Positions 11,902 to 36,660 of a stretch of 64,000 nt of DNA are shown here, piece after piece; positions within the stretch are counted from its first letter, which is position 1; each line of letters opens with the position of its first letter. Source of the stretch: Eledone cirrhosa (taxonomy: Eukaryota). The notes below the pieces were generated by a model. That model was not told where the DNA came from. It did not search any database and was given only the letters and a program-made list of their open reading frames with translations. The DNA lies in assembly GCA_964016885.1 (NCBI GenBank), contig OZ024745.1, positions 105,958,001 to 106,022,000 on the forward strand, given 5' to 3'. A program made the position numbers and the translations under genes.

Positions 11902-13047
11902 TGTGAGAGAAGGTTAATGATGAATTAAAGTTATCATGAAACCGAACATGTGGTTCGAATGTTTGCGACAAAGGGAATTTTTCTCACCTCAATTGCTTCA
12001 CCCTCATTTTTATCCTCTTGTGATCTTCCTCCTACTATTTCTTCCTTCCTTCTCCTTCTTATTCCTTTAATAATTAAGTTTGTCCATTATCCTTCAGGGC
12101 TCGGTAAATAAGATGTACAGTGAGGGACAGGAGGAGTAATTAGATCGGCTCTTTGAATTCTGTTAGGTTTAATATATGCTTGTTTCAGCACCACCACCAC
12201 ACACTCTTTGGAAAATGTCAACGGAGTCTACTCGGTTGTAAGCATCTGGACTAGGTATCCTATTTGGATATACCTTCCTCTCTCAGACCAGTCTTGGGGG
12301 TTCCTGAAATGAGACATGAGCAATGTTTTCACTTCTGACACAGTGAAAAGTAAAATAAATGAGCCTACCAAATTATAAATGAGGTCAGCGCCCCCTCCCC
12401 CACTACCCTCCACGCTACACTTCACTCAACCTTTCAGACATTTTCCTCTCCAGAACAATACATAATTGTATTGAACGAGAGATGGTACCCGACTTTTGAT
12501 CTCAGTTTACTTTGAGCTCATTAATGAAAGACACCTTCTTTAACGAATCCCTTGTACCGTAAATTAACCGAAAGTAAAGTTTCAGAATACATATTTCCGA
12601 ACAGGCTTTGAAAAAAACAAAAAAGCAAAAAAAAACAAAAAAAAACAAAAAAAAAACAAAAACAAAAACACGGATTGAATGCTGTAGTCTGTATAATGTA
12701 GTATCAGATTGAGAATCAAAATAAAAATGTTTTCCTCATATCATTTATACTTAAACGACTACAATCGTATCAGAAAGAAATTCTTCAACAATTGATTTCG
12801 GAAATTGGGGCGATAAAGAAGGATATAAAATAATGTAATAATTATTGTTAACAATGAGATCGTTCTATTTATTAAGGGGGCACTAAATATCTCCTAAGTG
12901 CATATTCTTAAGAAAATTCGGTGTGTTTTATTCATTTGTGTAAGTTTGCCTATGCCTCGTTGTGTGATGGTAAAGCTGATGTCATGTACATGTCTATGTA
13001 TCTATCTATCCACACACCCACACACATATACATATATATATATATAT

Positions 13048-13102
<55 letters not shown>

Positions 13103-13133
13103 TACATATATGTTTATATATATATGTACGTAC

Positions 13134-13186
<53 letters not shown>

Positions 13187-13304
13187 TAGACATAGAATAT
13201 TCGAAAATATTCTGTATGTTTATAATAAACATTTTGAAGACCTAATCGCTATAGAATAGAATACGTCACGTATTACAATTAGATTCTCGATAAAAGCAAG
13301 GGAA

Positions 13305-13657
13305 GTAATCTACGCGTTTCATTCTTGTTAGAATTCATCAGGACTACATATCCAGTGCTTTTATCGAGAATGACACAGCTAGAGACTTATAGAATACTTA
13401 GCTGTGTACAGGAACTGGTTTGAAAGAGCGGTTGCCGGTCCGGCAGAAATTAGAAATTGGAATAAATGCTCTGAAATAGCGATATATATGTGAATATAGA
13501 CATAGAATATTCGAAAATATTCTGTATGTTTATAATAAACATTTTGAAGACCTAATCGCTATAGAATAGAATACGTCACGTATTACAATTAGATTCTCGA
13601 TAAAAGCAAGGGAAGTAATCTACGCGTTTCATTCTTGTTAGAATTCATCAGGACTAC
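13305..13657 (-). ncRNA. Two minus-strand copies of the same hammerhead (13305-13347 and 13615-13657)
   Basis: Exact reverse complement of 13928-13970. Confidence 0.9.
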
Positions 13658-13927
13658 ATATCCAGTGCTTTTATCGAGAATGACACAGCTAGAGACTTAT
13701 AGAATACTTAGCTGTGTACAGGAACTGGTTTGAAAGAGCGGTTGCCGGTCCGGCAGAAATTAGAAATTGGAATAAATGCTCTGAAATAGCGATATATATG
13801 TGAATATAGACATAGAATATTCGAAAATATTCTGTATGTTTATAATAAACATTTTGAAGACCTAATCGCTATAGAAAGTATTCTATAAGTCTCTAGCTGT
13901 GTCATTCTCGATAAAAGCACTGGATAT

Positions 13928-13970
13928 GTAGTCCTGATGAATTCTAACAAGAATGAAACGCGTAGATTAC
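13928..13970 (+). ncRNA. Type I hammerhead ribozyme, first of 15 plus-strand copies spaced 310 bp apart (last at 18268-18310)
   Basis: Helix I gtagtc/gattac; core CTGATGA 13934-13940; helix II attct/agaat with loop aaca; GAAA 13955-13958; palindromic helix III acgcgt; GUA cleavage triplet ending at 13964. A distal 16-bp stem pairs 13904-13919 with 13977-13992. Confidence 0.92.
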
Positions 13971-16900
13971 TTCCCTTGCTTTTATCGAGAATCTAATTGT
14001 AATACGTGACGTATTCTATTCTATAGCGATTAGGTCTTCAAAATGTTTATTATAAACATACAGAATATTTTCGAATATTCTATGTCTATATTCACATATA
14101 TATCGCTATTTCAGAGCATTTATTCCAATTTCTAATTTCTGCCGGACCGGCAACCGCTCTTTCAAACCAGTTCCTGTACACAGCTAAGTATTCTATAAGT
14201 CTCTAGCTGTGTCATTCTCGATAAAAGCACTGGATATGTAGTCCTGATGAATTCTAACAAGAATGAAACGCGTAGATTACTTCCCTTGCTTTTATCGAGA
14301 ATCTAATTGTAATACGTGACGTATTCTATTCTATAGCGATTAGGTCTTCAAAATGTTTATTATAAACATACAGAATATTTTCGAATATTCTATGTCTATA
14401 TTCACATATATATCGCTATTTCAGAGCATTTATTCCAATTTCTAATTTCTGCCGGACCGGCAACCGCTCTTTCAAACCAGTTCCTGTACACAGCTAAGTA
14501 TTCTATAAGTCTCTAGCTGTGTCATTCTCGATAAAAGCACTGGATATGTAGTCCTGATGAATTCTAACAAGAATGAAACGCGTAGATTACTTCCCTTGCT
14601 TTTATCGAGAATCTAATTGTAATACGTGACGTATTCTATTCTATAGCGATTAGGTCTTCAAAATGTTTATTATAAACATACAGAATATTTTCGAATATTC
14701 TATGTCTATATTCACATATATATCGCTATTTCAGAGCATTTATTCCAATTTCTAATTTCTGCCGGACCGGCAACCGCTCTTTCAAACCAGTTCCTGTACA
14801 CAGCTAAGTATTCTATAAGTCTCTAGCTGTGTCATTCTCGATAAAAGCACTGGATATGTAGTCCTGATGAATTCTAACAAGAATGAAACGCGTAGATTAC
14901 TTCCCTTGCTTTTATCGAGAATCTAATTGTAATACGTGACGTATTCTATTCTATAGCGATTAGGTCTTCAAAATGTTTATTATAAACATACAGAATATTT
15001 TCGAATATTCTATGTCTATATTCACATATATATCGCTATTTCAGAGCATTTATTCCAATTTCTAATTTCTGCCGGACCGGCAACCGCTCTTTCAAACCAG
15101 TTCCTGTACACAGCTAAGTATTCTATAAGTCTCTAGCTGTGTCATTCTCGATAAAAGCACTGGATATGTAGTCCTGATGAATTCTAACAAGAATGAAACG
15201 CGTAGATTACTTCCCTTGCTTTTATCGAGAATCTAATTGTAATACGTGACGTATTCTATTCTATAGCGATTAGGTCTTCAAAATGTTTATTATAAACATA
15301 CAGAATATTTTCGAATATTCTATGTCTATATTCACATATATATCGCTATTTCAGAGCATTTATTCCAATTTCTAATTTCTGCCGGACCGGCAACCGCTCT
15401 TTCAAACCAGTTCCTGTACACAGCTAAGTATTCTATAAGTCTCTAGCTGTGTCATTCTCGATAAAAGCACTGGATATGTAGTCCTGATGAATTCTAACAA
15501 GAATGAAACGCGTAGATTACTTCCCTTGCTTTTATCGAGAATCTAATTGTAATACGTGACGTATTCTATTCTATAGCGATTAGGTCTTCAAAATGTTTAT
15601 TATAAACATACAGAATATTTTCGAATATTCTATGTCTATATTCACATATATATCGCTATTTCAGAGCATTTATTCCAATTTCTAATTTCTGCCGGACCGG
15701 CAACCGCTCTTTCAAACCAGTTCCTGTACACAGCTAAGTATTCTATAAGTCTCTAGCTGTGTCATTCTCGATAAAAGCACTGGATATGTAGTCCTGATGA
15801 ATTCTAACAAGAATGAAACGCGTAGATTACTTCCCTTGCTTTTATCGAGAATCTAATTGTAATACGTGACGTATTCTATTCTATAGCGATTAGGTCTTCA
15901 AAATGTTTATTATAAACATACAGAATATTTTCGAATATTCTATGTCTATATTCACATATATATCGCTATTTCAGAGCATTTATTCCAATTTCTAATTTCT
16001 GCCGGACCGGCAACCGCTCTTTCAAACCAGTTCCTGTACACAGCTAAGTATTCTATAAGTCTCTAGCTGTGTCATTCTCGATAAAAGCACTGGATATGTA
16101 GTCCTGATGAATTCTAACAAGAATGAAACGCGTAGATTACTTCCCTTGCTTTTATCGAGAATCTAATTGTAATACGTGACGTATTCTATTCTATAGCGAT
16201 TAGGTCTTCAAAATGTTTATTATAAACATACAGAATATTTTCGAATATTCTATGTCTATATTCACATATATATCGCTATTTCAGAGCATTTATTCCAATT
16301 TCTAATTTCTGCCGGACCGGCAACCGCTCTTTCAAACCAGTTCCTGTACACAGCTAAGTATTCTATAAGTCTCTAGCTGTGTCATTCTCGATAAAAGCAC
16401 TGGATATGTAGTCCTGATGAATTCTAACAAGAATGAAACGCGTAGATTACTTCCCTTGCTTTTATCGAGAATCTAATTGTAATACGTGACGTATTCTATT
16501 CTATAGCGATTAGGTCTTCAAAATGTTTATTATAAACATACAGAATATTTTCGAATATTCTATGTCTATATTCACATATATATCGCTATTTCAGAGCATT
16601 TATTCCAATTTCTAATTTCTGCCGGACCGGCAACCGCTCTTTCAAACCAGTTCCTGTACACAGCTAAGTATTCTATAAGTCTCTAGCTGTGTCATTCTCG
16701 ATAAAAGCACTGGATATGTAGTCCTGATGAATTCTAACAAGAATGAAACGCGTAGATTACTTCCCTTGCTTTTATCGAGAATCTAATTGTAATACGTGAC
16801 GTATTCTATTCTATAGCGATTAGGTCTTCAAAATGTTTATTATAAACATACAGAATATTTTCGAATATTCTATGTCTATATTCACATATATATCGCTATT

Positions 16901-18463
16901 TCAGAGCATTTATTCCAATTTCTAATTTCTGCCGGACCGGCAACCGCTCTTTCAAACCAGTTCCTGTACACAGCTAAGTATTCTATAAGTCTCTAGCTGT
17001 GTCATTCTCGATAAAAGCACTGGATATGTAGTCCTGATGAATTCTAACAAGAATGAAACGCGTAGATTACTTCCCTTGCTTTTATCGAGAATCTAATTGT
17101 AATACGTGACGTATTCTATTCTATAGCGATTAGGTCTTCAAAATGTTTATTATAAACATACAGAATATTTTCGAATATTCTATGTCTATATTCACATATA
17201 TATCGCTATTTCAGAGCATTTATTCCAATTTCTAATTTCTGCCGGACCGGCAACCGCTCTTTCAAACCAGTTCCTGTACACAGCTAAGTATTCTATAAGT
17301 CTCTAGCTGTGTCATTCTCGATAAAAGCACTGGATATGTAGTCCTGATGAATTCTAACAAGAATGAAACGCGTAGATTACTTCCCTTGCTTTTATCGAGA
17401 ATCTAATTGTAATACGTGACGTATTCTATTCTATAGCGATTAGGTCTTCAAAATGTTTATTATAAACATACAGAATATTTTCGAATATTCTATGTCTATA
17501 TTCACATATATATCGCTATTTCAGAGCATTTATTCCAATTTCTAATTTCTGCCGGACCGGCAACCGCTCTTTCAAACCAGTTCCTGTACACAGCTAAGTA
17601 TTCTATAAGTCTCTAGCTGTGTCATTCTCGATAAAAGCACTGGATATGTAGTCCTGATGAATTCTAACAAGAATGAAACGCGTAGATTACTTCCCTTGCT
17701 TTTATCGAGAATCTAATTGTAATACGTGACGTATTCTATTCTATAGCGATTAGGTCTTCAAAATGTTTATTATAAACATACAGAATATTTTCGAATATTC
17801 TATGTCTATATTCACATATATATCGCTATTTCAGAGCATTTATTCCAATTTCTAATTTCTGCCGGACCGGCAACCGCTCTTTCAAACCAGTTCCTGTACA
17901 CAGCTAAGTATTCTATAAGTCTCTAGCTGTGTCATTCTCGATAAAAGCACTGGATATGTAGTCCTGATGAATTCTAACAAGAATGAAACGCGTAGATTAC
18001 TTCCCTTGCTTTTATCGAGAATCTAATTGTAATACGTGACGTATTCTATTCTATAGCGATTAGGTCTTCAAAATGTTTATTATAAACATACAGAATATTT
18101 TCGAATATTCTATGTCTATATTCACATATATATCGCTATTTCAGAGCATTTATTCCAATTTCTAATTTCTGCCGGACCGGCAACCGCTCTTTCAAACCAG
18201 TTCCTGTACACAGCTAAGTATTCTATAAGTCTCTAGCTGTGTCATTCTCGATAAAAGCACTGGATATGTAGTCCTGATGAATTCTAACAAGAATGAAACG
18301 CGTAGATTACTTCCCTTGCTTTTATCGAGAATCTAATTGTAATACGTGACGTATTCTATTCTATAGCGATTAGGTCTTCAAAATGTTTATTATAAACATA
18401 CAGAATATTTTCGAATATTCTATGTCTATATTCACATATATATCGCTATTTCAGAGCATTTAT

Positions 18464-18505
<42 letters not shown>

Positions 18506-19020
18506 TATATATAAATATATAATATTTATATATATAAATATTATATATGCATGTATGCAAAGATACATGCATATAAAAATATATATATTCATACATACAT
18601 GCATACATACATGCATCATATGTATGTCAGATGTGATGTTTCTGATACGAAATGAGATTTTCTCAATGAAACAATTAAACCATATTCTTCAAGAACTGTA
18701 GTGGGTAGCTTTACTCAAACGATGAAAACACCACCACCAAAACCATCAACACCACCAACAATGCCCCCCCCCCCCACCCAGCAGCAACAACAGCGAAAGA
18801 CAATGATACAAACATACCAAGACAAGAACAACAAAAATGCATCAAAGACAATGTAAAGGAAAATTAATTTATACAGTTATTTATTTTGTATTTGTGTCTA
18901 TGTGTATCTGCATGAGTGAGTATGAGAATATTTGTGTATGAAAGTGTCTCTTTTTTGTTTTAGTTGCTTCTGGTTTGTATATACATAATTATTCCAATTA
19001 TGTTTTAGACTATCGTTGTT

Positions 19021-21450: not shown

Positions 21451-22450
21451 ACAAATGATGAGGAATGTACGGACAATGATTGTGAGCAATTCCAGCCTGC
21501 AGTAATTAAAACTGAATCTCTAAACAATGGACAGGTTACCACACCAAAAACCAGGTATCAACTGTTCACTGAGTCCAGGAAATCCCCTCCCCTTCAGTGG
21601 CGCCCGACACTCCAAAGAGCCGAAACAATAGACTCTACTACAAAAGGCTCATTTTCTGAGCTTCAATCACAGAAACGGAATTACGTGGAAAATTATCCGT
21701 GGCACCAGAATGGTTCGAGTCGAATGCGGTCTAATAGCATTTCAGCTGGGAGAATCAGGTATTCCGATCACAAACCTCACAGATCCCTTCCAGAGCAAAG
21801 CTTGTGTAGTCGTGTCAGTCCCCCTGTGCAGACCAAAAATGTAGCAACGAGTACCTCCCCGCCTCCTTATGACCCAAATGGTCCAATATCAGAATTGGAT
21901 ACTACACTAAGGAACTTTTCTTTTAACTCACCATTCTTTCATCCTCAGAGCCCACCAGTAAGTCCCTTGCCTAATTCTTCCCGATACCATATCCACTCTA
22001 AAGGAACGCAATGGACCCCATTACAGGTGTCTGCTATGACGAGGACCAGCCCAATACACATGCAGCAGAAGTGTCACAGGTCTCCCAGAAGTCCTGTGGC
22101 TGCTTCTCTGATGAGATCTCAGTCAGTCGCAATTCCAAGGAGTCCTTCGCCACAGTCTTTATTTAGAGTTTCATCTCAAGACTCCCAAAATAAACAAAGC
22201 CAACAGCAGCCACATGTTCACCACCACCACCATCACCATCACCATCACCATTATCAACAACACTTTCTCCAACAACCACAACAGCAACAGCAGCCACAAC
22301 CTCACCAGCACCAAAAACCACTGCCACAAACACAATACCAACATCACCAACAGCATTACCAACAACCACAGCAGCAAATTCAACAACTTCAACAACACTA
22401 TCAACTTCCACAACATCAACAACAACAACAGCAACAACAACAACATCAGC

Positions 22451-22487
<37 letters not shown>

Positions 22488-23102
22488 GCAACAACAGTCA
22501 CAACAAAAACAGCAACAACAACAACAACCACAACTACAACAACTTCCACATAAAATTAGAACTATACAGCAAGAAAACAGTCCTGTCTTTACTTTTCAAC
22601 AAAATACAGTTATTTCATCACCAAATTCCTCTTCCAGGCACCAATGGAATCAAGTGTCCCTTGTGCGATCTCAGACAATTTCAACATCAAGAAGTCCACT
22701 GAATTTGCCAGCCTGGAACCTCGTTCCTGAATACGCACGTCCAAAACCCTTTCCACCAACTCGGATAGGTACGCAACGCATTCTGTCAACAAACCAACCT
22801 CTGCCTAACAGCGGCCCTCAAAGTATATGTCCAGAAAGCTGTAAAGTTCCGGTTGTTCGACACTCTCTGTCAGTACAGAGTACTCCGCTGAACGCTACAC
22901 GCCTAATTCATACTGCATCTACGCCATGTGCTACTGCTTTCTCAGATAACGCCATGAACTTTGCTGGCAACCAAAAGTGGCGCATCAAACATATATCCTA
23001 TCCTTCTCCTGATTATAGTATGCTGCACAAGAAAAATTTGGAAACTGGATCATTAGTCGACCCAGCCGACAATGTCAGTGATGTCAGTGATGACGTTAAC
23101 AG
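21451..23102 (+). CDS. Large internal coding exon (about 550 codons; Ser/Pro-rich with polyH/polyQ tract), probable N-terminal extension of the MARCHF2/3-like E3 ligase
   Basis: Polypyrimidine tract and TAG acceptor end at 21450. The frame is open from 21451 (TNDEECTDNDCEQF...) into ORF 21685..23106. The donor AG|GTAAGG at 23102/23103 is phase 2, matching the phase-2 acceptor of the RING exon (AG+T = Ser). Confidence 0.8.
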
Positions 23103-23157
23103 GTAAGGTATATCTTATTTCCATTATTTATATTTATATAAAGGACCAGTAATATTA

Positions 23158-26500: not shown

Positions 26501-26860
26501 ATTAACGAGGACCGATGAAGATGATGGTTGCGCAAACGATTATGAAAGAAAAGTATATATAGGTTATTTTTAAAGTTTATATTAAATCTGGTTGAAAATA
26601 GCTTCGTTTTTACACATTTCCAACGATTGTATCACAAATTTGTCGCATTTTAAATGATGAAAATGATGAGTATGTTTGTGCAAATCAGAATTGAGCAAAT
26701 ACCAAAGAATATTCTTATAAAGAAAATATTTTCAATTTTTGTTCACAACTTTTATCAATCGATGAAAGATTGAAACGAACACACACACACACACACACAC
26801 ACATACACACACACACACACGCACATATATTATGTATATATATATATATATATATATATA

Positions 26861-27047
26861 GGAACGAGTAGGACCCCGACGGCCGAGCTCGAGCCGTTTC
26901 AACGGCTAATCTCCAGAATTAGCCGTCGAAACGGCTTGAGCTCGGCCGTCGGCGTCCTACTCGTTCCTATTACCCACTCTACTACCCTAAGTATTGAGTA
27001 ATTTGGTGCGTTATGGTCCACCTGGTTCCTTACCACATTTCCTTCGT

Positions 27048-27080
<33 letters not shown>

Positions 27081-27215
27081 TCCAGAATTAGCCGTCAAAA
27101 CGGCTTGAGCTCAGCCGTCGGGGTCCTACTCGTTCCTATTACCCACTCTACTACCCTAAGTATTGAGTACTTTGGTGCGTTATGGTCCACCTGGTTCCTT
27201 ACCACATTTCCTTCG

Positions 27216-27218
<3 letters not shown>
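26861..27218. mobile_element. Family B: palindromic copy (26861-27050) plus a direct 5'-truncated copy (~27079-27218)
   Basis: Near-identical to 63363-63503. Only the 3' half of the hammerhead is present (GAAA, helix III, GUC). Both copies end at ccttcgttat followed by (TA)n. Confidence 0.85.
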
Positions 27219-27952: not shown

Positions 27953-28185
27953 GATAGATAGAAGATGAATTAAAGATTAATTATAGGTGGTTCCACTAAG
28001 AAATCTCCCCCATACGAAACCATGGTAGAGAGATCTATATATAACCGAGGTCAGATAGAATACTTTTTTTCTATCTTGCTTGTACACCCATAATTAGAGT
28101 TTTCTCTCACTTAATTTTAATATATATATATATAATAATGAAATGACAGGAGGCTGGATTTGTGTAAATCCTTGAAAGGTTTATT

Positions 28186-28243
28186 ATACTATGATCATTT
28201 CAATGACCGGGTTCCGTATGAATACGGTGATATCATCAGGTAT
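28186..28243 (-). ncRNA. Type I hammerhead with AUA cleavage triplet in a (TA)n-flanked ~220-bp insert (~28134-28351)
   Basis: Reverse complement reads atac-CTGATGA-t atcaccg...cggtcat t-GAAA-tgatca-TA-gtat. Helix III is the palindrome atgatcat. Confidence 0.75.
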
Positions 28244-28434
28244 TCGAAATATAATAAGTGAATGTAATAGATAAAATCGATGGGGGTTGAAAATCAAGGG
28301 CCCGAGGGCGACCGCCATCCAGCATCTTCTACATTTGCCGGTCGCGCTTTTCATATATATATATATATGAAAAGATTCAGGACACCGACGGCTGAGCTCC
28401 GGCCGTTTCGACAGCTTGATCAGAAATCTGTCTC

Positions 28435-34410: not shown

Positions 34411-36214
34411 GGCACAAGACCAACAATTTTTGGGGAGGGGATAGATTAGACAATAACAAGCCTGAAATTGTCCAACGTATACCTCTTGTTCTCGTCTTTT
34501 CTCATCGGTGTTACTACGCCCTGGCTCACAGAACTCGGAATACTTCCAGTTGCAGTAGACCGCTTCGAGTAAACCGGAGAGTAAGTCTGGCATATCTACG
34601 TAAAACACGTAAGGCAGACCATCAACCCAGGTGATTTGCGTCTCAAAAAGCCGACCAGTGCATCCCGAATTTCGGCTTAAGTTATCGACCTTTCGCAACA
34701 CTCAGCATCGGCTTGGGAGGGTCACGGAAGGCCGTCGAGGTAGCAAATGGATTCCGCCACCGTCTTCAGCCCCCACCCTCCCCTTACAATCAAGCAAATT
34801 GCTGGTGAAAGGCCGCACACATCTGCTTGGAACCGATCAGCACTATTATGTATGCAATCAGCCGATGTATACTTTAGATAATATTATATATTCTCAAGAG
34901 TTCTAGTGAGTGACAGAAGAGAGATACACAATCTTGACAAAGGGCAATAATCCAGAAATAATATTGTCGATTGTTTCTCTCTGTAAAATTCACGAATACC
35001 TTTACGTATCCGCTATGTTAGAGCGAAAAGCCAAATTCTAATTTTGTTTTTAATATTTTATTGCTTTTAATTTAATGTCCCACATTCAACATACTTTTAG
35101 TTTGACACTTCCCCATATCCTTCCATGAAATATTTTTGGAAAATAGATTAAGCTGTTTATCATATTACAAGCATTTTCCCTTCAACAATAGCAACATTTG
35201 TAATGCTGAATAAGACTAAAATAGACATGTTTTTCTGTCCATTGATGATATCGAATTCAAATCAAGCCCATTATCAACCTGGCAAAGGATATATAACTGC
35301 AGGCAGTTAAATTGACCTCATGGCCATTATTTAGATAGCTGCTTACAAATTTGGGGAAATATCTTCATCCCCGCAATAAAGAAAATGTGTTCCACAAGAA
35401 TAGAAACTTGAATGTTTGTGAGACTTGTTTTTAAACATTTTACAATCCAAGATTTCAGCTTAAATCGGTTCATTTATATCAGTAATATAAATCATTTCAA
35501 TTTTGGGACATATTATTTAAGATATTTACTTTATAATTGCTATTTTTTTCATGTTATTCCATACGTAACACTCTAGCCTCCTCCAAAAAAAAAAAACAAA
35601 TTGTAATCCAAATTATGCAAACATCCATATTTTTCATTTCATTGAAATGATCAATAGATTCCCCCTCCTCCCATCTTTTGCTACTTTATATTTCTATACA
35701 TTCAGTCTTTTTTCGGAGATGTCCTTCTATATAAATAACCTATTAATAGAAGATATCAACCCAGCTTCAAGAGATTCAATGGTCAATGATTCTTGAGCTC
35801 TTAAATGTAGGAACATAATGAATTAAGCCAGTGAATTATGCCAGAAAAGTCACCATGAATACCTCATTGTTACCAGCATGCATTCCAACCAAATTTCGAG
35901 AAAGATTATCATAGTTTACAGGGTTGCAATATATATTTTGGTTTTCTTAATAATAATTGTTGAACGCAAGTTTTATGAAAAGGCATAATTCCTGCATCGT
36001 CATTGCATTCATATTATCAGACATCTTACGGCTTTTTGCATGTTAAAACTTTTTCTAAAAATAGCATGCCGTATGCTTGCTTTGATTTACATTTGATAAA
36101 TTCATGAAAAAAAACGAGATAAATCCCCCAAAATACTTTTCTATAAGATTTTGTTTCCGCTATAACACTCTTTCGTTCTTTTATTTCTGCTTCATGTGCC
36201 TTTTACTTTGTATA

Positions 36215-36660
36215 TTATTGATTAAATTCAGAGGATATTTCCTCCCAATAAATATTATTTTCATCTTTCCTAGTCTGCGATTCCTTGTTATTGATATTAA
36301 GACTATTGTGCATATTTACATATTTACTTAGATAAATTGAATGGAATGTTGGTGAGTTCGTTGGTTTGAAATATATATATTTGTTACTAGTTTCGTGTTT
36401 GTTTCAATTACCAGCATATCTAAGAAGGGGAGTTTATCACTACTGGACTCGTTAGTGAACTTGCTATGAGGGCTTATTTCATTGATCAAGTTTTGAAAAT
36501 TGTTCCTATTATTGTCGGTAGGTTGCTTAATCGAACATGAAGTCATTTCTTCTATAAAATAAACCGAGGACTATCATACACAAAACCAAAAAACACTTTT
36601 TCCTGTTATGAGTAATTTGACTTTTTTTTCAATAATCTAATAATTCAAGGAAAGATATCT
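36215..36660 (-). pseudogene. Decayed Penelope-like element reverse transcriptase fragment (RT C-terminus/thumb)
   Basis: INEISPHSKFTNESSSDKLPFLDMLVIETNTKLVTNIY matches the PLE pattern LN.LHP.IKFT.E....LPFLD.L......L.TDIY.KPT. After a deletion, ICTIV....RNRRL.......RKYP..LI also matches PLE ORFs. Confidence 0.8.

Follow-up and report, generated by a model that had tools for sequence, protein, structure and literature searches.

Non-LTR retrozymes of coral, mussel and axolotl are among the closest described systems. According to the main text of Cervera and de la Pena 2020 (PMC7229834), they share with the family reported here tandem low-GC units of 150-450 bp, one type I hammerhead per unit, a self-paired monomer and target duplications of more than 4 bp. 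In addition, the base of helix II carries a U.U mismatch both in HHR_Amex2 and in a variant of our family (287A>T). The same text proposes that the circles are copied by the reverse transcriptase (RT) of a Penelope-like element (PLE) or a LINE. Cleavage and circles were demonstrated in that study, whereas here both are predicted from sequence; its main text neither uses the word 'inverted' nor analyses insertion ends or haplotypes, whereas the family described here is inserted head-to-head with two fixed ends. For vertebrates, Li, Clavereau and Pollet 2026 (bioRxiv 10.64898/2026.07.22.740005) concluded that retrozymes are non-autonomous PLE derivatives. Our conclusion is alike in tying a non-autonomous retrozyme to PLEs, but theirs is based on co-occurrence and pLTR similarity, favours local tandem amplification and is presented without the terms 'tail' or 'haplotype', whereas we found no pLTR homologue in the 50 GIY-YIG loci read (of 10,595 candidates), yet an insertion footprint of the PLE type.

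Features listed for PLEs are a 5'-truncated copy in inverted orientation, a tail of 30-40 bp at one of the ends and a bias for (TA)n (Craig 2021, PMC8557442). One PLE protein was shown to nick each strand of AT-rich DNA and to start reverse transcription at two neighbouring internal sites, which delimit the tail; in vitro, the Poseidon ribozyme is dispensable (Frangieh 2024, PMC11167929). Our family resembles EN+ PLEs (Poseidon PAc, PMC11167929; Neptune/Naiad, PMC8557442) in the inverted 5'-truncated copy, the 30-40-nt tail at one end, the AT-rich or (TA)n target and a type I hammerhead upstream of the ends. Unlike them, it has no ORF and forms whole-unit multimers, not partial tandems. Chlamys PLEs such as MRC1 are likewise non-autonomous and recently active, with multicopy head-to-tail insertions (Craig 2021, PMC8557442).

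Here we analysed a 64,000-nucleotide stretch of Eledone cirrhosa DNA (the window). From its sequence, the array it contains probably represents a non-LTR retrozyme that is young and non-autonomous and relies on the RT/GIY-YIG protein of a PLE for its mobilisation. PLE copying of a small RNA circle into a chromosome has been proposed before, and we found no report of it having been seen in genomes. While the hypothesis that PLE enzymes copy animal retrozyme circles was so far based on co-occurrence and pLTR similarity, this family bears the footprint of a PLE enzyme in its insertions (two mapped start sites, target motif, inversion and target duplication). In addition, the insertions record a bottleneck of a single molecule, together with selection acting on RNA structure. 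The hypothesis can now be put as a defined in vitro question: a 310-nt substrate, predicted starts at ~130 and ~165, (TA)n as target, and proteins of this same genome as candidates. On this view, satellite-like arrays could arise complete in a single step.

The array and its hammerheads

The array consists of one 310-nt unit throughout (Table 1). An earlier note on this DNA had listed 15 plus and 2 minus hammerheads at an exact 310-nt period in identical units; our recount agrees, with 0 mismatches and intact cores in 17 of 17 cases. The head-to-head arms, the two different fixed ends, the (TA)n setting and the genome-wide unit family go beyond that note. With 310 bp and a GC content of ~34%, the unit lies within the retrozyme range (150-450 bp, GC below 50%). 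No reading frame of at least 150 aa overlaps the array, which is non-coding, and the ORF check did not reveal the RT and GIY-YIG ORF of an autonomous PLE at the array.

Table 1. Features of the array and of its first plus-strand hammerhead (window positions)
Feature	Position	Strand	Remarks
Left target flank	13026..13182	.	(TA)n-rich
Whole array	13183..18469		exact 310-nt period
Short inverted arm	13183..13876	-	694 bp (2.24 units) with 2 cores; breaks 5' at unit position 55 and ends 3' at 128 (proposed first priming site, adjoins the unit's internal AU tract)
Head-to-head arm junction	13876..13876	.	1-nt microhomology
Long arm	13876..18469	+	4,594 bp, 14.82 identical units, 15 CUGAUGA cores; breaks 5' at unit position 222 and ends 3' at 165 (proposed second priming site)
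First plus-strand hammerhead with extension	13904..13992	+	covariation with older relatives
16-bp stem extending helix I	13904..13919 with 13977..13992		
Helix I, GUAGUC/GAUUAC	13928..13933 with 13965..13970		
Hammerhead core	13934..13940		
Helix II	13941..13954		
GAAA	13955..13958		
Helix III, palindrome ACGCGU	13958..13963		predicted cut after 13964
Cut-to-cut monomer	13965..14274	+	310 nt, predicted circular RNA
35-nt 'tail'	18435..18469	+	unit positions 131-165, at the right end only
Right target flank	18470..18548	.	(TA)n-rich

A type I hammerhead is found in every unit. Compared with the canonical metazoan form (6-bp helix I, 4-bp helix II, 1-2-bp helix III and a palindromic loop; Cervera 2014), it has the conserved core, a 6-bp helix I, a 4-bp helix II and a short palindromic helix III, together with an internal loop UAU/U and a loop 2 of UAACAA, the candidate partners for the loop 1-loop 2 tertiary contact of that form. 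The palindrome in helix III and the 16-bp stem beyond helix I, both proposed in the earlier note, are confirmed (Table 1), while its hairpin gccgg/ccggc folds instead as UGCCG-GAC-CGGCA. The Rfam hammerhead check suggested there did not reach the gathering score for any family within the array (best Hammerhead_HH9, 23 versus 52 bits, E 0.003), and the sole match in the whole window at that score was tRNA-like. The hammerhead matched on the plus strand only and not, as expected of viroid-like RNAs, in both polarities. Among eight related units, 16 of the 34 predicted pairs showed two-sided changes, that is, covariation with older relatives. The monomer is predicted to be highly self-paired, both as a linear (-73.9 kcal/mol, z -4.4; none of 100 shuffles equally good) and as a circular molecule (z -5.6).

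Insertion geometry across the genome

Pattern searches located 16,711 units in at least 980 insertions. This young dispersed family amounts to ~5 Mb of nearly identical sequence and is therefore probably still active. Two arms in head-to-head orientation were found in 50 of 59 insertions and a single arm in the other 9. All 49 complete two-armed insertions were head-to-head, with one arm ending within unit positions 126-139 and its partner within 154-172 (49/49; L054 was left out of this count). The modal pair 130/165, found exactly in 19 of the 49, leaves a 35-nt 'tail'. Most loci had been chosen via one end, so that only the other was free to vary; loci collected blind to the ends followed the same rule in 8 of 9 two-armed cases of one set and in 4 of 5 loci missed by the end patterns. 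Outer ends adjoined (TA)n in 95 of 99 cases. Flank duplications of 12-60 nt accompanied 7 of 52 insertions versus 22 of 2,652 mismatched controls; a first count was discarded, as boundary bases confounded it (26% in controls). At the window locus, a target duplication is unreadable in flanks of pure (TA)n. The earlier note's assignment to the non-LTR retrozymes is supported by every feature that can be tested in sequence: 310-bp units, hammerheads, absence of coding capacity, duplications longer than 4 bp and a self-paired monomer.

Arms differ in length, reach up to 45 whole units each and are joined by microhomology or a short insert. Exact unit counts are those of the assembly, and perfect arrays and inversions might be artefacts of assembly or polishing (fold-back chimeras, collapsed or expanded repeats). 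We regard this as scarcely credible: arms are unequal in length and end position, junctions carry microhomology or inserts, loci have private haplotypes, singletons and flanking target duplications, and older families, 75-82% identical, have the same insertion geometry. The array in the window, too, is unlikely to be an assembly expansion, since dozens of loci show this geometry, each with haplotypes of its own.

The geometry points to PLEs as the enzyme source. Two RT/GIY-YIG-coding PLE copies of the same genome (L165 and L156) show the same head-to-head, two-end, (TA)n arrangement. L1-type twin priming was set aside, since under it a poly(A) 3' end and only a single fixed end would be expected. 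Regarding an autonomous partner, not one of the 50 GIY-YIG loci read (9 clusters; 150 scored from 10,595 candidates) had this unit for a pLTR, and 30 ends of older families were followed without any of them leading into a PLE ORF of its own. Unit-like matches in L151, L122 and L167 were separate insertions rather than partner PLEs, and L192, considered as a longer pLTR, was an older-family fragment adjoining an unrelated repeat family.

We propose the following cycle. Arrays would be transcribed, and the hammerheads, probably acting as dimers via the palindromic helix III, would release 310-nt monomers from the RNA (among predicted dimers of vertebrate retrozymes, 1 of 9 cleaved; Li 2026, bioRxiv 10.64898/2026.07.22.740005). 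By analogy to other retrozymes, a host ligase would circularise them. The PLE protein would then nick the two strands at staggered positions in a target that is (TA)n or AT-rich; here the target bias and the 12-60-nt duplications are observed and the enzyme is putative. Each target 3' end would prime reverse transcription on the same RNA, at unit positions ~130 and ~165. The end positions are observed, and priming there is suggested by the in vitro work on Poseidon. Both cDNAs would circle the template for a variable number of turns, to which haplotype fixation points, stop at scattered points and be joined head-to-head; the junctions observed have microhomology or a short insert.

Haplotypes and the nature of the template

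Within an insertion, private variants were present in every unit of both arms. In 45 insertions we found 22 fixed haplotypes, 16 of them seen once, and the arms agreed in 31 of 32 cases (11% by chance). Sporadic changes amounted to ~2.6 per 10 kb of array. Alongside 95 fixed-variant calls, 2 sporadic variants were shared in register and 34 were unshared (L035, L038 and L101 were left out of the register test, L192 and L188 out of alignment A1). These data lend indirect support to the earlier note's proposal that a 310-nt circle was recently reverse-transcribed in rolling-circle mode: array-private variants are fixed in all units of both arms, 514 cleavage junctions are read through in 49 insertions, and 5' breaks do not pile up at the cut site (3 of 100 within 10 nt versus 6.5 expected).

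Alternatively, a PLE could have inserted linear multimeric transcripts, followed by local growth and homogenisation through unequal crossover or gene conversion, with no circle involved. This local step corresponds to the satellite route in Li 2026. L220 and L070 each have a variant confined to a single unit, the same one in both arms; this accords with a multimeric template or with conversion between the arms, and not with a monomer circle. Segmental variant repeats in three long arrays and the main use of unprocessed RNA by Poseidon in vitro (Frangieh 2024, PMC11167929) point in the same direction, as does the over-representation of 5' breaks immediately 3' of the cut site (35 of 100 at unit positions 1-62 versus 20 expected; Rayleigh p ~0.005). 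Such breaks could reflect run-off at a cut 5' end with later trimming, instead of a pause at the long stem. But the other 65 of 100 breaks fall within positions 63-310, inherited in-register heterogeneity is rare (2 versus 34), and 16 private haplotypes fixed over both inverted arms of arrays with so few sporadic changes would require a one-unit bottleneck at nearly every insertion. We consider linear templates unlikely, although they deserve more weight than the other alternatives. Partly shared variants in L116+17, L107 and L108b, some at fixed unit offsets, show later local expansion.

Only 2 of 23 fixed (inherited) variants break a predicted pair, versus 27 of 55 sporadic ones (Fisher p 0.0007), a statistical signal that inherited variants may be filtered by the need of the RNA to fold. 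The U.U mismatch variant is the commonest. In the proposed PLE-driven cycle, every round would depend on the folding of the single RNA molecule it passes through, and pair-breaking variants would be removed in this way. The points against a retrozyme mobilised by a PLE are the lack of an autonomous partner among the loci read, the cleavage of no more than 1 of 9 predicted dimers in Li 2026, the dispensable ribozyme and preferred unprocessed RNA of Poseidon in vitro, the L220/L070 pattern, the local expansions, the breaks at 1-62 and the single-armed insertions.

Closed circles in public sequencing runs

At least 73% of the unit's sampled words were present in 20 public runs (17 studies, 18 organism labels). 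Among the listed runs with unit words none was an RNA run, a 26-nt motif had no exact match in JGI metagenome and IMG/VR contigs, and a Hi-C run (X23), in which 0 of the 12.8 million reads matched the unit, counts as no test. Given the spread over these 20 runs and the closed circles described below, the 310-nt circle might also be a free, transmissible viroid-like RNA of many organisms, repeatedly written into this genome by a PLE RT, but this seems quite doubtful, and the run matches are explained more simply by trace carry-over, ingested material or related host species.

In all three contig runs examined, which carry different organism labels and have no recorded library type, the unit forms a single closed 310-nt circle (340-nt contig) without branches or loose ends. 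Such contigs would also suit an extrachromosomal DNA monomer circle as template, copied by rolling-circle DNA synthesis and captured at (TA)n breaks with the hammerhead as a passenger; uniform arrays with private variants would likewise result. This model is very unlikely, since it leaves unexplained why ribozyme-sense 3' ends always face outward, at two fixed sites 35 nt apart, and why single-strand base pairs are spared. The three circles differ from the window array at 0, 0 and 1 positions, although the array's hammerhead haplotype occurs in only ~15% of the genome's units (2,528 of 16,711).

The array and its ribozyme

The array had been proposed to hold 15 plus-strand and 2 minus-strand hammerhead cores, and it matched one 310-nt unit exactly throughout. 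With unit positions counted from the predicted cut (13965 is position 1), we found an intact ribozyme core together with helices I and II of 6 and 4 bp and a helix III formed by the palindrome ACGCGU, the hammerhead being extended by a 16-bp stem. This layout agrees with the canonical metazoan type I hammerhead in the consulted part of Cervera 2014 (PMC4209133). In the Rfam search that the earlier note had suggested, the best match, to HH9, lay below threshold. Predicted folding of the monomer was far better than that of shuffled sequences (linear z -4.4, circular z -5.6). Identity as a non-LTR retrozyme, as also proposed, was borne out by every sequence feature open to testing. The class is defined in the consulted part of Cervera and de la Pena 2020 (PMC7229834), which proposes copying of circles by Penelope-like elements (PLEs) or LINEs; the further invertebrate retrozymes listed in its supplement may include this family or a relative.

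Features of the window
Feature	Position	Strand	Details
Array, plus arm	13876-18469	+	14.82 units, 15 hammerhead cores, 0 mismatches to one 310-nt unit
Array, minus arm	13183-13876	-	2.24 units, 2 hammerhead cores, 0 mismatches to the same 310-nt unit
Open frame	21451-23106	+	551 codons, Gln/Ser/Pro-rich, 3 kb from array; no Pfam match
Repeat of ~150-200 bp	26860-27216		two partial copies, each with (TA)n end, one partly inverted; further copies in several fetched loci
Single type I hammerhead	28130-28350	-	core 28239, short (TA)n-flanked element; copies in locus L156 ~91% identical
Decayed PLE reverse-transcriptase fragment	36202-36501	-	31-42% identity to PLE frames of the genome
tRNA-like match	48238-48308	+	36 bits, several pairs broken; probably SINE head or pseudogene
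Second hammerhead tandem	51096-52575		unit ~446-466 bp; cores 51744, 52210 (minus), 52296 (plus); fold-back inversion near 52250; TA-rich DNA at end
Assembly gap	58022-58221		200 N
Single type I hammerhead	61820-62262	-	core 61932, short (TA)n-flanked element

Copies in the genome and their architecture

In the 3.0-Gb genome, pattern searches detected a 21-nt stretch of the unit 16,711 times without mismatch, the array's 43-nt hammerhead 2,528 times, and 980 junctions between position 165 and (TA)n (versus 0 matches for reversed-pattern controls). Since the insertions read average 10.5 units, the copy count suggests roughly 1,600 insertions genome-wide. The loci read besides the window all lie within the first 120 Mb of one contig, C1. 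Interspersed repeats in the window are probably similar to octopod ones.

In 50 of the 59 insertions read, two arms stand head to head with their ribozyme-sense 3' ends facing outward; nine are single-armed. All 49 complete two-armed insertions end at 126-139 on one side and at 154-172 on the other, 19 of them with the exact pair 130/165. Since most loci were picked by one end, only the opposite end tests this rule; the pattern was seen in 8/9 loci picked without regard to ends and in 4/5 missed by the end patterns. Outer ends adjoined (TA)n in 95 of 99 cases. Flank duplications of 12-60 nt, visible where the rhythm of the target is interrupted, occurred in 7/52 insertions versus 22/2,652 controls. 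The 50 central junctions comprised 26 with microhomology, 6 blunt and 18 with 1-21 inserted bases, and at least 2 nt of microhomology was present in 18 of the 32 insert-free ones (18% expected by chance). Older families (867 ends, 75-82% identity) end at the equivalent site, are frequently inverted and lie in (TA)n.

Template and RNA structure

Among 45 insertions with at least two full units (426 units), we identified 22 haplotypes that are fixed throughout the full units, 16 of them occurring once. Haplotypes agreed between arms in 31/32 cases versus 11% by chance, and singleton variants numbered 2.6 per 10 kb. Because a new variant originates in one unit, its fixation in the two arms requires repeated copying of a template one unit long. 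The arms read through 514 cleavage junctions, and 5' breaks did not pile up within 10 nt of the cut (3/100 versus 6.5 expected). However, three observations speak against a pure monomer-circle route and indicate multimer templates and later local expansion in a minority of insertions: two variants, in loci L220 and L070, are common to both arms in a single unit and in register, although such sharing was absent for 34 others; nine variants in five insertions are partly shared, some at fixed unit offsets; and 5' breaks are overrepresented at positions 1-62 (35/100, p ~0.005). One array (L116+L117, G000:C1:97461510-97475588) has an arm of 45 units in which shared variants are interspersed, several of them recurring at a 27-unit offset, and is becoming a satellite through local duplication.

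A predicted pair was broken by 2/23 fixed versus 27/55 sporadic variants (Fisher p 0.0007), a comparison based on a single predicted structure and on unpolarised variants from related lineages. One of these two fixed variants, a U.U mismatch at the helix II base, is present also in axolotl HHR_Amex2. Invariant core bases were hit by no fixed variant, but by the singleton 283A>G. Among eight natural copies, 16/34 pairs had two-sided changes versus at most 4 in slid controls; the structure was derived from that alignment and is thereby favoured. With these caveats, the signal suggests selection on the RNA structure of the unit. Several older families show U3-A8 core covariation, as do PLE hammerheads in the consulted part of Cervera 2014.

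Between 73 and 100% of sampled words were present in 20 public sequencing runs (17 studies, 18 coded organism labels). In contigs of runs X1, X3 and X7, the unit appears as a single record of 340 nt that closes into a 310-nt loop without loose ends, with 0, 0 and 1 differences from the array at depths of 26, 34 and 10. It resembles a trace-level single haplotype, since a host genome with its many haplotypes and ends should give branching; the loop may be a free circle, a low-coverage collapsed tandem or carry-over.

Penelope-like elements and neighbouring features

The PLE features given in the consulted part of Craig 2021 (PMC8557442) include a 5'-truncated copy in inverted orientation, a tail of 30-40 bp on one side and a bias towards (TA)n. 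The portion of Frangieh 2024 (PMC11167929) consulted describes a purified Poseidon protein that nicks and extends each strand of AT-rich DNA; its reverse transcription begins from two neighbouring internal sites, which bound the tail. Judged from sequence, the family appears to behave as a non-autonomous PLE, and two-site, target-primed, rolling-circle reverse transcription of the monomer circle by a PLE protein is its likely mechanism. A PLE origin of retrozymes is argued in the part of Li 2026 consulted from co-occurrence and similarity to PLE terminal repeats (pLTRs). Retrozyme class and PLE hypothesis are already published, while the genomic footprint apparently is not: the literature searched, which covered few subscription journals, yielded no paper on retrozyme insertions with inversion and tail, nor on fixed haplotypes.

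The genome is PLE-rich, with 10,595 GIY-YIG candidates (150/150 of those scored were above cut-off). In one copy, an open frame of 938 aa matches RT and GIY-YIG and has a Cys-rich linker resembling that of Neptune. The coding copies L165 and L156 lie head to head in (TA)n with tails of ~30 and ~60 nt, respectively. The 310-nt unit served as pLTR at none of the 50 GIY-YIG loci read, and a specific partner PLE was not found among them. Young Neptune-like families (L151:4509-7322, minus strand; L152, L156, L160; L154, L155, L157, L165) are candidate sources of the enzyme. Their pLTRs carry hammerheads ~125-145 nt upstream of their (TA)n-abutting ends, with palindromic helix III and, in some, a U3-A8 core.

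The second hammerhead tandem of the window has relatives in loci L161, L162 and L145 (73-96% identity) and is probably another, older retrozyme family of the same geometry. The 551-codon frame is likely a host exon, and the array may therefore be intronic or gene-proximal.
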